Shown: one piece after another, positions 3,376 to 7,884 of the stretch | How positions within the stretch are numbered: position 1 is the first letter of the stretch | Layout: the number at the start of each line of letters is the position of its first letter | IMG/VR virus record: IMGVR_UViG_2734482594_000006 | Reading direction: 5' to 3' (one strand) | Length of the DNA: 7,884 nt | Source of the DNA: a virus | Lineage: Duplodnaviria; Heunggongvirae; Uroviricota; Caudoviricetes | Translations under genes and position numbers: made by a program | Notes under the pieces: generated by a model | What the model was told of the DNA's origin: nothing | Seen by the model: only the letters and a program-made list of their open reading frames with translations | The model's database searches: none

Positions 3376-3980
3376 ATGGCTAAACGCGTTACAAAATTAA
3401 AGGCCGCAGCCGAGGCGGCACCGCAGACCCGGGAAGAAGTCAGCCGTGATATCCGCACCCTGGGAGATATTCAGCGAGAGGCGCTGCGCCTGGAAACGGC
3501 GATGAATGACGAAGTGGCAGAAATCACCGCCCGTTATACGCCGCAGATTGAAAATCTTAAAAAGCAAATCAAAGTGCTTTTTAAAGGGATTCAGGNNNNN
3601 NNNNNNNNNNNNNNNNNNNNNNNNNNNNNNNNNNNNNNNNNNNNNNNNNNNNNNNNNNNNNNNNNNNNNNNNNNNNNNNNNNNNNNNNNNNNNNNNNNNN
3701 NNNNNNNNNNNNNNNNNNNNNNNNNNNNNNNNNNNNNNNNNNNNNNNNNNNNNNNNNNNNNNNNNNNNNNNNNNNNNNNNNNNNNNNNNNNNNNNNNNNN
3801 NNNNNNNNNNNNNNNNNNNNNNNNNNNNNNNNNNNNNNNNNNNNNNNNNNNNNNNNNNNNNNNNNNNNNNNNNNNNNNNNNNNNNNNNNNNNNNNNNNNN
3901 NNNNNNNNNNNAAGGTGAATAAAGGCGCTGAAAGTTTTTATGTCGAGCCTTTTGAACAGGACGCCGGACTGAATAAATAA
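3376..3980 (+). CDS. gam: Gam-like host-nuclease inhibitor (Ku-like DNA-end-binding protein); 5' part is secure, 3' boundary uncertain because of mask 3596-3911 and a frame change across it
   Basis: N-terminus MAKRVTKLKAAAEAAPQTREEVSRDIRTLGDIQREALRLETAMNDEVAEITARY matches my recollection of Mu Gam; AAGGA 8 nt upstream of ATG 3376. After the mask, a different frame reads KVNKGAESFYVEPFEQDAGLNK then TAA at 3978-3980, which resembles a Gam C-terminus as I remember it. Confidence 0.7.
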
Positions 3981-4464: not shown

Positions 4465-4760
4465 NNNNNNNNNNNNNNNNNNNNNNNNNNNNNNNNNNNN
4501 NNNNNNNNNNNNNNNNNNNNNNNNNNNNNNNNNNNNNNNNNNNNNNNNNNNNNNNNNNNNNNNNNNNNNNNNNNNNNNNNNNNNNNNNNNNNNNNNNNNN
4601 NNNNNNNNNNNNNNNNNNNNNNNNNNNNNNNNNNNNNNNNNNNNNNNNNNNNNNNNNNNNNNNNNNNNNNNNNNNNNNNNNNNNNNNNNNNNNNNNNNNN
4701 NNNNNNNNNNNNNNNNNNNNNNNNNNNNNNNNNNNNNNNNNNNNNNNNNNNNNNNNNNNN

Positions 4761-5228: not shown

Positions 5229-6146
5229 ATGATGAAATTACAACCCATGGGACTAAAAGGTCGCGCCCCCGCTCATGTCCGTCCGTGGACACCTGAAGAA
5301 GATGCGCTGCTGATTGCGCTTTATTCATCCACCCCGGTTAAGGATATTGCTGCCAGAATAAAAAGAACTGTCTGGGCTGTATATAACCGGACTGGTGTAT
5401 TGCGCAGTTCATACCCGGAGTTACTGAAATATAAACACCCAAGATTTACACCTGATGAAGATAAGTTTATTCGAAAAAATGCCAGAACAATGACCTGCCA
5501 GCAAATGGGAGAATATCTCGGACGTAATAAAGATTCTGTCAGATGTCGGGCAGGAATGATTGGTGCTGGATTAACAAAGTGCGGAGAGTTACGCCCCGGC
5601 ACGCGCATATCTGATGATGATGTACGTCTTATACGTGAGCTGCGTGATTCCGATTACCCACGCCGTCTGTCATTCCGGGAAATTGGCGAAAAGTTTGGAA
5701 TATCTGAACATTCTGCTCACGCAGTTTATTACCGTCGCCGGACTGCCGAGGACGCTGTATTACGGGAGTTAACGNNNNNNNNNNNNNNNNNNNNNNNNNN
5801 NNNNNNNNNNNNNNNNNNNNNNNNNNNNNNNNNNNNNNNNNNNNNNNNNNNNNNNNNNNNNNNNNNNNNNNNNNNNNNNNNNNNNNNNNNNNNNNNNNNN
5901 NNNNNNNNNNNNNNNNNNNNNNNNNNNNNNNNNNNNNNNNNNNNNNNNNNNNNNNNNNNNNNNNNNNNNNNNNNNNNNNNNNNNNNNNNNNNNNNNNNNN
6001 NNNNNNNNNNNNNNNNNNNNNNNNNNNNNNNNNNNNNNNNNNNNNNNNNNNNNNNNNNNNNNNNNNNNGAAGATGAGGACGGACAGGTGACGCACTGGTG
6101 CCATCTTTCGGCCTTGCCGGAATTACAGGGGATACATAATGGATGA
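5229..6146 (+). CDS. Putative DNA-binding protein with three tandem SANT/Myb-like helix-turn-helix repeats; the visible 182 aa plus the 25-aa C-terminal piece are in the same frame across mask 5775-6068
   Basis: ATG 5229 with AGGGGGTGA upstream. Repeats: about 5286-5402 (WTPEEDALLIALY...IAARIKRTVWAVYNR), 5445-5564 (FTPDEDKFI...MGEYLGRNKDSVRCR) and 5604-5741 (DDDVRLIREL...SFREIGEKFGISEHSAHAVYYRR), spaced about 53 aa apart. Stop TGA at 6144-6146. Confidence 0.55.
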   Translation: MMKLQPMGLKGRAPAHVRPWTPEEDALLIALYSSTPVKDIAARIKRTVWAVYNRTGVLRSSYPELLKYKHPRFTPDEDKFIRKNARTMTCQQMGEYLGRNKDSVRCRAGMIGAGLTKCGELRPGTRISDDDVRLIRELRDSDYPRRLSFREIGEKFGISEHSAHAVYYRRRTAEDAVLRELTXXXXXXXXXXXXXXXXXXXXXXXXXXXXXXXXXXXXXXXXXXXXXXXXXXXXXXXXXXXXXXXXXXXXXXXXXXXXXXXXXXXXXXXXXXXXXXXXXXEDEDGQVTHWCHLSALPELQGIHNG

Positions 6147-6282
6147 GCAAATTGTTGAATGTCCCACCTGTGGAAATGAGGACCCGGAGTATCTGAAAGA
6201 GTGCCCACATTGTGGTGAGATAAAATGTAACCACTGCGATATGGGCGACGACACTGCATGTATAAATTGTGAGGATGAATAA
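6139..6282 (+). CDS. 47-aa acidic zinc-ribbon protein with four CxxC motifs; absent from the supplied ORF track
   Basis: ATG 6139 is the first start codon after the in-frame stop at 6088-6090, with GGGG 8 nt upstream. Product MDEQIVECPTCGNEDPEYLKECPHCGEIKCNHCDMGDDTACINCEDE. It overlaps the end of the upstream gene by 8 nt (ATGGATGA). Stop TAA at 6280-6282. Confidence 0.5.
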   Translation: MDEQIVECPTCGNEDPEYLKECPHCGEIKCNHCDMGDDTACINCEDE

Positions 6283-6283
6283 T

Positions 6284-6571
6284 ATGGAAAAAGAAATCAA
6301 ATTTGCGCCTAAATCTATCGACGAAGAACTGGCTAAAATCGGCATGCTTGAACGTATGCGGGACATTATCGAATATGCGATAAAAGAAAATCTTGCAGCC
6401 AGAGAAGCCCTTTTGATAATGGAGCGGGAGATTAACCTGATTAAGGATGCTGTATCTCTGGATAATAAAATAGCCCGCGAGGAATACGTTCGCCGTAGGC
6501 TCGGTGTTGATGGTTCAGCAATTCTTACATCTGAACATTATGCAAAAATTTTTAATCTTTTTCAGCGGTAA
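6284..6571 (+). CDS. Hypothetical 95-aa protein in AT-rich DNA
   Basis: ATG 6284 lies 1 nt after the zinc-ribbon stop, with GAGG(A) about 9 nt upstream. Product MEKEIKFAPKSIDEELAKIGMLERMRDIIEYAIKENLAAREALL... has no domain I recognise. A sampled 60-nt stretch is about 38% G+C, against about 63% in a 60-nt sample from B. Confidence 0.5.
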   Translation: MEKEIKFAPKSIDEELAKIGMLERMRDIIEYAIKENLAAREALLIMEREINLIKDAVSLDNKIAREEYVRRRLGVDGSAILTSEHYAKIFNLFQR

Positions 6572-6791
6572 TCCCCATACAGGCCCGGAGATTGTCGAAA
6601 TGCCAGTCGGTATTAATATATGAGCCATCCTGGATATCTTCTGCATTTTCCGGGGTAGAGTTTTTTTGAGCGAGATTGATAATATGTATTGCCTCCTCAC
6701 GGGAAATCAGCCCCTTATCGAACAGGGTTACCATAAGATTTCCAGCCATTGTGAATGCGGCAACATCAAGTGCATTTTTTATATCTGACAT
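6552..6791 (-). CDS. Hypothetical 79-aa protein, the only minus-strand ORF I consider plausible
   Basis: ATG is the complement of 6789-6791, with AAGGA about 8-10 nt upstream on the minus strand. It is the only ORF of 60 aa or more on either strand across 6572-6861 and overlaps the 3' end of 6284-6571 by 20 nt. No recognisable domain. Confidence 0.4.
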   Translation of the reverse strand: MSDIKNALDVAAFTMAGNLMVTLFDKGLISREEAIHIINLAQKNSTPENAEDIQDGSYINTDWHFDNLRACMGITAEKD

Positions 6792-6820
6792 AGATTTTTC
6801 CTTTTATGTTAATTGACATG

Positions 6821-6847
6821 GCGGTGCGGTAACACCGCCCATTTTTT
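6821..6847 (+). terminator. Candidate rho-independent terminator for + strand transcription
   Basis: 7-bp G+C-rich stem GGCGGTG (6821-6827) pairing with CACCGCC (6834-6840), loop CGGTAA, followed by C then TTTTTT (6842-6847). On the minus strand the run would be A's ahead of the stem, so it is directional. It ends 14 nt before the gemA-like ATG. Confidence 0.45.
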
Positions 6848-6861
6848 ATGGAGCCACGATA

Positions 6862-7256
6862 ATGAATCGCGCTTCCCTGATTACCTTAATACATGTCGCA
6901 AAACGCGATCTACAGCTTGACCATGATACCTATACATCCGCGCTGCTGNNNNNNNNNNNNNNNNNNNNNNNNNNNNNNNNNNNNNNNNNNNNNNNNNNNN
7001 NNNNNNNNNNNNNNNNNNNNNNNNNNNNNNNNNNNNNNNNNNNNNNNNNNNNNNNNNNNNNNNNNNNNNNNNNNNNNNNNNNNNNNNNNNNNNNNNNNNN
7101 NNNNNNNNNNNNNNNNNNNNNNNNNNNNNNNNNNNNNNNNNNNNNNNNNNNNNNNNNNNNNNNNNNNNNNNNNNNNNNNNNNNNNNNNNNNNNNNNNNCT
7201 AACTGGCAGTGGCTGGAGCAACAACCCGCGCTGGCCTCTGATGTGCTGGAGCGTCT
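6862..7256 (+). CDS. gemA: GemA-like (Mu gp16 family) early regulatory protein; internal mask 6949-7198, 3' end inside the mask that begins at 7257
   Basis: ATG 6862 with GGAG 8 nt upstream. N-terminus MNRASLITLIHVAKRDLQLDHDTYTSALL resembles the conserved N-terminus of GemA/DUF1018 proteins as I remember them. The same frame is open in the visible island 7199-7256 (NWQWLEQQPALASDVLERL). Confidence 0.55.
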
Positions 7257-7884
7257 NNNNNNNNNNNNNNNNNNNNNNNNNNNNNNNNNNNNNNNNNNNN
7301 NNNNNNNNNNNNNNNNNNNNNNNNNNNNNNNNNNNNNNNNNNNNNNNNNNNNNNNNNNNNNNNNNNNNNNNNNNNNNNNNNNNNNNNNNNNNNNNNNNNN
7401 NNNNNNNNNNNNNNNNNNNNNNNNNNNNNNNNNNNNNNNNNNNNNNNNNNNNNNNNNNNNNNNNNNNNNNNNNNNNNNNNNNNNNNNNNNNNNNNNNNNN
7501 NNNNNNNNNNNNNNNNNNNNNNNNNNNNNNNNNNNNNNNNNNNNNNNNNNNNNNNNNNNNNNNNNNNNNNNNNNNNNGNNNNNNNNNNNNNNNNNNNNNN
7601 NNNNNNNNNNNNNNNNNNNNNNNNNNNNNNNNNNNNNNNNNNNNNNNNNNNNNNNNNNNNNNNNNNNNNNNNNNNNNNNNNNNNNNNNNNNNNNNNNNNN
7701 NNNNNNNNNNNNNNNNNNNNNNNNNNNNNNNNNNNNNNNNNNNNNNNNNNNNNNNNNNNNNNNNNNNNNNNNNNNNNNNNNNNNNNNNNNNNNNNNNNNN
7801 NNNNNNNNNNNNNNNNNNNNNNNNNNNNNNNNNNNNNNNNNNNNNNNNNNNNNNNNNNNNNNNNNCGCCACTACCAGATGTCAG

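Follow-up and report, generated by a model that had tools for sequence, protein, structure and literature searches.

A gp13-like gene in a Mu-like prophage of Escherichia coli encodes a small acidic protein with four conserved CxxC pairs and a putative two-zinc domain

Introduction

The early transcript of bacteriophage Mu, which starts from Pe and extends from ner to C, spans the region of gene 13; the genes of this 'semi-essential' region have been termed 'largely uncharacterized', those whose roles are known act on functions of the host, and the region as a whole is dispensable for Mu growth (PMC3820752; PMC8705779). Gene 13 (Mup13, formerly E14) specifies a protein of 60 amino acids (aa), MENNKTSYSWLGKFTTVKQECPTCGNESPEYLKECPHCGGLKCNHCDMGDDTACMNCEGE (GP13_BPMU, NP_050617), which UniProt names 'Uncharacterized protein gp13'. 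The subject of the present study is a short open reading frame (ORF) at positions 6139-6282 of a 7,884-nucleotide (nt) stretch of DNA, referred to below as the window, which comes from IMG/VR virus record IMGVR_UViG_2734482594_000006 (Caudoviricetes) and covers the early part of an Escherichia coli prophage of the transposable, Mu-like type. An earlier, sequence-only reading of the window had described the product of this ORF as a strongly acidic protein of 47 aa with four CxxC pairs, and both the sequence and the ORF list agree with that description. As a discovery the gene matters little: the Mu map has included it, as E14/gp13, for decades, and a protein identical in sequence has already been deposited. 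Its interest lies in an uncatalogued domain with a sharp signature, under strong selection and present in gamma- and beta-proteobacteria on mobile elements unrelated to one another, which makes it a tractable target for the assignment of function.

Identity of the Gene

The ORF is almost certainly a true gene and the orthologue of Mu gp13 (E14). Its product, read from an ATG start, is MDEQIVECPTCGNEDPEYLKECPHCGEIKCNHCDMGDDTACINCEDE, in which cysteines are found at positions 8/11, 22/25, 30/33 and 41/44, and in which 14 aspartate and glutamate residues are set against two lysines and no arginine, giving a net charge of about -12. When phage genomes were searched with both DNA and protein queries, the matches fell at the annotated gene 13 of Mu, D108, SfMu, and Yersinia Mu-like phages. 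By tblastn, the 41-aa core is 87.8% identical to gp13 of Mu, D108, and SfMu, with the stop codon at the same position, and residues 7-47 matched the family profile phrog_5584 (E = 3.1e-26), the function of which is annotated as unknown. The similarity to Mu gp13/PHROG 5584 covers the full domain, including the CxxC-x10-CxxC-x4-CxxC-x7-CxxC spacing and the CDMGDD loop.

The position of the gene is also that of its Mu counterpart. Mup13 sits between Mup12 and Mup14, and a corresponding order is found in E. coli strain 600029 (NZ_CM128582.1, locus L002), to which the unmasked parts of the window flanking the ORF are 100% identical. As in the Mu early operon, the gene follows gp12 and precedes gp14, gp15, gemA, and mor. 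The junction with gp14 is identical to that of Mu, TAA-T-ATG (GAATAATATG), the stop codon at 6280-6282 being separated from the next ATG at 6284 by a single T; the 95-aa protein encoded there is homologous to gp14, and the minus-strand gene that follows is the counterpart of gp15 in position and arrangement. Two differences from Mu were observed. A Myb-like gene and a gene for a 110-aa protein are inserted here between the gp12-like and gp13-like genes, so the partner in the upstream overlap is not the same, and the 19-residue N-terminus of Mu gp13 (MENNKTSYSWLGKFTTVKQ), a segment that the window protein does not share, is replaced by six residues, MDEQIV. This segment does not define the domain, since it is variable or missing in many relatives.

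Conservation and Coding Status

The gp13-like protein is under strong purifying selection. Comparison of 40 codons between the window and Mu gave 15.5 synonymous and 6.5 non-synonymous differences, with 17 of the 22 changes at third positions; the non-synonymous rate (dN) was 0.07, synonymous sites were near saturation, and the ratio of non-synonymous to synonymous rates (dN/dS) was about 0.03, other pairs giving values of 0.02-0.3. Shuffling the window 300 times never produced four CxxC pairs inside 44 residues of one open frame; three, reached once, was the maximum.

When 1.84 billion representatives were scanned in full by HMMER with a hidden Markov model of close relatives, 121 clusters gave a match at E <= 1e-3. 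Among 43 aligned small members, with identity down to about 40%, eleven positions were invariant (C8, C11, G12, C22, C25, C30, C33, D34, G36, C41, and C44), and P23, K29, and D37 were conserved in at least 90%. The signature of the domain is CxxCG-(8 to 27)-CPxC-x3-KCxxCDMGDD(V/T)xCxxC. Acidity is a property of the whole family (median net charge -7), and 39 of the 43 members carry an acidic tail after the last cysteine.

It had been proposed earlier that frameshifts, stops, or lost cysteine pairs in homologous loci would expose the ORF as a chance frame. The frame and all eight cysteines were intact in every one of 69 IMG/VR loci and of 16 species-representative genome loci from gamma- and beta-proteobacteria, and the gp13 loci of E. 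coli and phages are likewise intact. The sole broken copy (P0009), with a GGG run lengthened by one G, lies on a metagenomic contig (ENA contig_3088, locus L037) belonging to a Mu-like prophage; it is most likely a (long-read) assembly error or part of a dead prophage, because the neighboring early genes for Gam, gp11, gp12, and GemA are fragmented too.

A beta-proteobacterial subfamily (Rubrivivax, Hydrogenophaga, Aquabacterium, and others; L025, L027-L031, L033-L035, and L094-L107) begins with NYRETD, has the motif KCCMCDMGDD, and carries an insert of 20-27 residues between the first and second CxxC; several copies adjoin Mor or Mu portal/F genes in Mu-like prophages.

Predicted Zinc Binding and Fold

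From the pattern of its cysteines, the product very probably binds two zinc ions at two Zn(Cys)4 sites. The sequence-only reading had judged the cysteines to be sufficient for this, an estimate borne out by the invariance of all eight in the 43 relatives, and we infer that the 41-residue core folds round the two centers. The eight-cysteine domain is without a curated Pfam or NCBIfam model or a PDB structure. Scans of the 47-aa protein against Pfam and NCBIfam gave no model at threshold; the best Pfam matches were to generic zinc-ribbon models on residues 7-27 and to the double zinc ribbon, all below their gathering thresholds (DZR, PF12773, 14.9 versus 27.3 bits; Zn_ribbon_LapB, 16.8 versus 25.7; Zn_Ribbon_1, 13 versus 25). 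Across the family, DZR matched 24 of the 43 members weakly (best E 0.0021, none at cutoff). Prok-RING_2 (PF14445) matched six of the 43 at E <= 5, the window protein not being among them, and in one relative, P0060, the match covered the whole domain and just exceeded the cutoff (22.9 versus 22.4 bits). When P0060 was used as the query in a word-index search, only P0060 itself was returned.

From the 43-sequence alignment, AlphaFold2 predicted a model (mean predicted local distance difference test score, pLDDT, 80.9) with strands at residues 19-21 and 28-30 and helices at 31-34 and 42-45; the predicted hairpin surrounds the second CxxC, and the short helices begin at the third and fourth. The loop between cysteine pairs 1 and 2 ranges from 10 to 27 residues, and beyond pair 2 the spacings are constant, at x4 and x7. 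A variable first loop with fixed, short later spacings is characteristic of RING-like fingers. The predicted secondary structure and the weak fold matches lean towards an interleaved ligand pairing (pairs 1+3 and 2+4), a cross-brace like that of RING, FYVE, and B-box domains, whereas the weak profile matches lean instead towards two ribbons in series. On balance, the cross-brace is slightly favored.

With the binuclear, RING-like treble-clef fingers (RING, B-box, ZZ, FYVE, PHD; Prok-RING_2), the gp13-like protein has in common eight ligands arranged in four pairs, but its ligands are all cysteine, with no histidine, and there are no ubiquitin-system genes nearby; the resemblance is a possible one of architecture, not of function. 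With generic zinc ribbons and DZR it shares a CxxC-x10-CxxC first half and the four CxxC pairs overall, but their models miss the conserved KCxxCDMGDDxxCxxC half. Homology to Lar (PF14354) was considered and rejected (11.3 versus 28.6 bits, E = 0.43; nine of the 43 relatives matched, only at E >= 0.066). Membership of DksA/TraR was likewise rejected, as zf-dskA_traR gave no match at E <= 5 and 47 aa leave no room for the coiled coil, and so was homology to Com, for which no profile matched at E <= 5.

Genomic Context and Modularity

In E. coli Mu-like prophages, the stretch from the gp12-like gene to gemA is a hot-spot for cargo genes. The gene upstream of gp13 is gp12 in Mu, the 110-aa gene in the window prophage, and other small genes in SE11. 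In FDAARGOS_1058 (L008, 1444-1730), gp13 is directly 5' of gemA without gp14 or gp15, while SJ7 (L036, 2875-4049) has kept the Myb-like and 110-aa-type genes and has gp13-gp15 replaced by four small, unrelated genes. The proposal that positions 5229-6571 form a compact cassette does not survive these comparisons, as the neighbors on both sides vary between lineages and among E. coli Mu-like prophages. In strain 2012EL-2448 (L006, 2206-2903), an IS1A element is inserted before gemA.

In Mu-like prophages of beta- and gamma-proteobacteria, the domain has Mor, GemA, and Mu head genes in its vicinity, but its distribution is not confined to this type of virus. It occurs in a lambdoid prophage (L012), immediately before a DEDD 3'-5' exonuclease and an integrase; in a phiKO2-like phage-plasmid (L038), also with a DEDD exonuclease nearby; in a gene cluster that precedes the gene for a giant Eco57I/SNF2-type protein; and in an integrative element, where it forms the C-terminal part of a 316-aa protein encoded next to a D12 methylase and DnaB. 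The lytic Klebsiella phage Kpn BU9 (60 kb; L003, 4001-4153) has a 50-aa homologue, 55% identical and with all eight cysteines, in its replication module, flanked by a gene for a 264-aa hypothetical protein and then by those for a DUF2800/PD-(D/E)XK nuclease, a gp2.5-like single-stranded DNA-binding protein, and DNA polymerase. The 'exonuclease' that recurs nearby represents three unrelated families, and a Pfam scan of 106 neighboring ORFs from 15 genome loci revealed generic Mu-like and mobile-element content only.

The domain is also found joined to other sequences. Three E. coli prophage proteins of phrog_6418 (P0148, P0155, and P0161; 231-234 aa) have an unrelated N-terminal domain of about 175 aa fused in frame to the gp13 module. 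The C-terminal 41-56 residues of PHROG 6418 proteins correspond to the gp13 domain, but the window protein, at 47 aa, is free-standing. The fusion junction lies just before SYSWLG; in other prophages the gene upstream of gp13 reads in another frame and overlaps it by 14 nt, and the difference reflects either gene fusion/fission or a frameshift difference. In a further C-terminal fusion, the preceding part resembles a ProQ-C-like domain, with a match near threshold; the other fused N-termini were unmatched.

Tight packing recurs as well, with upstream overlaps of about 8 nt and downstream gaps of 0-1 nt. Overlaps of about 8 nt with unrelated upstream genes were seen in L011, L012, and L020, and overlapping or abutting junctions also in L003. 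The overlap of ATG and upstream stop, the ribosome-binding site inside the upstream gene, and the next gene 1 nt further on, all described in the sequence-only reading, stand, although the ribosome-binding site is modest (the duplex of AGGGGA and the 3' end of 16S rRNA is at -6.5 kcal/mol, the background being -3.2 +/- 2.6), and the pairing energy leaves its use by ribosomes unproven. Translational coupling, which that reading had drawn from this arrangement, fits the packing and the recurrence of such junctions, but the upstream partner is the 110-aa gene and not, as had been stated, the Myb-like gene. The gp13 domain behaves as an autonomous module, independent of its neighbors, that moves between phages of Mu-like, lambdoid, N15-like, and lytic types and is also carried by an integrative element.

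Proposed Role and Alternative Explanations

The best overall explanation, to which we would give not quite an even chance, is that the gp13 copy is translated and serves as a two-zinc, protein-binding module; that it works by inhibiting or modulating what it binds is possible, and is put forward more tentatively. The gene would be read from the long early transcript, in its non-essential part, between the gp12-like gene and gp14/gp15/gemA/mor. The protein would fold around two zinc ions through its 41-residue core, and its acidic surface, chiefly the invariant C-D-M-G-D-D loop together with the usual acidic tail, would dock on a basic surface of a partner, a host or phage DNA-handling protein that would be modulated or blocked early in lytic growth. 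A protein-binding module is suggested because the protein is too acidic for nucleic acid, because the acidic loop is invariant, and because the domain occurs as a C-terminal appendage on unrelated domains; a role directed at host functions fits because Gam, Kil, and GemA, encoded in the same Mu region, act on host functions.

A bolder proposal, which we consider unlikely, is that the gp13-type CDMGDD module represents a new class of binuclear zinc finger, an acidic warhead that would disable one host DNA-handling or anti-phage protein across mobile elements; among its targets might be, equally speculatively, a nuclease, a restriction or defense factor, or a nucleoid or topoisomerase component. 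If true, this would assign a function to one long-unassigned gene of the Mu semi-essential region. T7 Ocr is a DNA mimic or decoy, and YacG is a zinc-finger inhibitor of gyrase with an acidic tail. Both are small and strongly negative, as is the gp13-like protein, and YacG also combines a zinc-knuckle scaffold with an acidic tail, which may provide a lead, not membership; the gp13-like protein showed no sequence or fold similarity to either in searches.

Several observations weigh against a protein-binding role built on two zinc sites. Zinc binding is deduced from the cysteine pattern, and the profile matches across the family are split between a sequential double ribbon (24 of 43, weak) and a RING-like domain (6 of 43). 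Solved structures searched by sequence gave only generic knuckles (best E = 0.008), a fold comparison with solved structures gave no significant match, the weak ones being nearly all of the RING-like cross-brace class, and a library of predicted viral structures returned only an unnamed 52-aa protein and none of known role. Acidity fits a protein-binding or decoy role and is no proof of one. Comparison of the immediate neighbors across ten lineages detected neither similarity nor a conserved partner, the association with nuclease genes may reflect only the location in early or replication regions, given that the families are unrelated, and the PADLOC defense models matched neither the gp13-like ORF nor six neighboring proteins. 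Finally, the literature on Mu gp13, the Mu early/semi-essential region, and the motif yielded no paper or experiment on the function of gp13. Literature matches to the name 'gp13' referred to the T7 and JBD30 proteins, which are other proteins.

The organization of the locus could also mean that the product works as a partner or subunit dedicated to the protein of a neighboring gene (the 110-aa protein, the gp14-like protein, or, as the sequence-only reading suggested, the Myb-like protein), made in fixed proportion to it through coupling. The 8-nt upstream overlap and 1-nt downstream gap would suit such an arrangement, the gp13/gp14 junction is the same in Mu, overlapping junctions recur in other lineages, and the C-terminal fusions to other domains could resemble a detachable subunit. 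The flanking proteins, however, are unrelated between lineages: FDAARGOS_1058 keeps gp13 without gp14 and gp15, Mu has gp12 upstream, SE11 has other neighbors, and SJ7 has the Myb-like gene and a 110-aa homologue but no gp13, while the Myb-like gene is not even adjacent in the window prophage, so that a fixed partnership appears improbable. A somewhat lower probability attaches to a zinc-finger regulator binding DNA, RNA, or RNA polymerase, on the models of Mu Com, P2 Ogr, and DksA/TraR. The early region in which the gene lies is a regulatory one, with gemA and mor just downstream, and generic zinc-ribbon profiles weakly match residues 7-27. DksA/TraR proteins have acidic tips that reach into the active site of the enzyme, and the acidic loop might, by analogy, do likewise. 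Against this, a protein with a net charge of about -12, two lysines, and no arginine, from a uniformly acidic family, is a poor candidate for binding nucleic acid, which makes the regulatory role named in the sequence-only reading unlikely in that form, while the inhibition of host proteins named there as well is possible; the profiles for DksA/TraR, Ogr, and Com all failed to match at E <= 5, the prophage has its own TraR/DksA gene, and the region is dispensable for Mu growth (PMC3820752; PMC8705779).

Eight cysteines in 47 residues might also bring to mind zinc buffering or delivery, or a thiol-based redox sensor acting in phage development, and weak profile matches to HypA (12 of 43 members at E <= 5) and to rubredoxin-like domains point the same way. 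These matches, however, are far under their cutoffs and cover one CxxC...CxxC half only, the conserved G12, P23, K29, D34, G36, and D37 and the fixed spacing indicate a defined fold and surface rather than a simple chelator, and no metallo-enzyme partner is conserved nearby, leaving such a role very improbable. That the ORF is a chance or decaying frame without a functional protein has a negligible probability. In three E. coli genomes the RefSeq pipeline PGAP skips the 47-aa form, as it does the 52-aa phage-plasmid form, and one metagenomic copy is frameshifted, but that copy has a homopolymer insertion in a broken contig, other pipelines annotate the gene, and at least 1000 contigs carry it. 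The pattern of conservation, with its low dN/dS, cysteines invariant down to about 40% identity, and the outcome of the shuffles, refutes this explanation.

Annotation Status

Whether the gene is 'unlisted', as the sequence-only reading had it, depends on the source: this is true of the first ORF track and of RefSeq/PGAP, but the exact 47-aa sequence is present in NCBI, ENA, IMG, and UniRef (e.g., BCA72774.1), on at least 1000 contigs and under names such as 'Uncharacterised protein' and 'Mu prophage protein'. PGAP leaves the short forms of gp13 (46-52 aa) unannotated at 6874-7017 of L002, where the ORF fills a gap in the annotation, at 1501-1641 of both L006 and L007, and at 3977-4135 of L038, the phiKO2-like Klebsiella phage-plasmid; it does annotate the 60-aa Mu-type form, and a 52-aa form in E. 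coli SE11. For the phage-plasmid ORF, the PLSDB RGI call is 'chrB non-erm 23S rRNA methyltransferase', a label that looks spurious. The gene thus provides a concrete case of small phage genes being dropped or mis-called. In the 90%-identity cluster that contains the exact 47-aa protein, the representative and most listed members are the unrelated upstream 110-aa protein; this mixed cluster is probably a clustering artefact or the product of a bridging fusion sequence.

Masked Stretches and Other Features of the Window

The features of the window are collected in Table 1. About 29% of it is masked by eight runs of N, which keep neither true length nor reading frame: the run at 5775-6068 comprises 294 N, compared with 257 nt at the same place in L002. 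The ORFs of '305 aa' (5229-6146) and '644 aa' (53-1987), which cross such runs, are artefacts, and ORFs read through the masked stretches, as well as claims of gene coupling that build on them, are unreliable. In L002, the counterpart of the run at 5775-6068 contains the stop of the Myb-like gene and the start of the separate 110-aa gene (6549-6881, WP_000633432.1; phrog_6925, E = 2e-51), the last 8 nt of which overlap the gp13-like ORF. Because the N-run conceals this gene boundary, the partner in the upstream overlap is to be read as the 110-aa gene and not the Myb-like gene. Within the overlap, ATGGATGA, the gp13-like ATG occupies 6139-6141 and the stop of the upstream frame, TGA, 6144-6146.

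Table 1. Positions of the gp13-like gene, its neighbors and signals, and the masked runs in the window
Feature	Position	Strand	Evidence or remark
gp13-like gene, 47 aa, putative two-zinc domain	6139..6282, stop included	+	ORF list, PHROG 5584, identity to Mu gp13, dN/dS, invariant cysteines
Shine-Dalgarno-like AGGGGA	6127..6132	+	6 nt 5' of the gp13-like ATG, within the upstream gene
8-nt overlap ATGGATGA, end of 110-aa gene and start of gp13-like gene	6139..6146	+	Sequence, comparison with L002
Shine-Dalgarno-like GAGGA for the downstream gene	6271..6275	+	Inside the gp13-like coding sequence; -6.0 kcal/mol
gp14-like gene, 95 aa	6284..6571	+	1 nt after the gp13-like stop; 49% identity to Mu gp14
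gp15-like gene, 79 aa	6552..6791	-	Converges on the gp14-like gene with a 20-nt overlap (6552-6571); arrangement as Mu gp14/gp15
3' end of gene for 110-aa hypothetical protein (phrog_6925), last 25 codons and stop	6069..6146	+	Start within N-run
Myb/SANT-like (D5-like) putative regulator gene	5229..5774	+	Last codon and stop hidden in N-run
N-runs	857-1120, 2099-2383, 3596-3911, 4465-4760, 5775-6068, 6949-7198, 7257-7577, 7579-7865		

The complete gene order of the region can be followed in L002. It begins with the C-terminus of the Mu transposase, a MuB-like AAA ATPase, several small genes, and Gam, followed by proteins of 177 and 171 aa, the latter 55% identical to Mu gp12. Next come the SANT/Myb-like protein (183 aa, 6001-6552; phrog_323, E = 5e-53, with weak Myb and helix-turn-helix Pfam matches), the 110-aa hypothetical protein, and a gap of 137 nt without annotation. 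Beyond the gap are the 95-aa gp14-like protein (7019-7306; phrog_6075, E = 5e-44), the 79-aa gp15-like protein on the opposite strand (7287-7526; phrog_32893, E = 1e-45), a protein of the gp16 (GemA) family, Mor, and lysis and head genes. A separate gene of the TraR/DksA family is annotated elsewhere in the same prophage. An Rfam search of both strands of the window matched no RNA element, and an RNA-element reading of the locus was rejected on this result. On the plus strand, a terminator-like GC hairpin with a T-run (6820-6839) precedes the masked gemA region.

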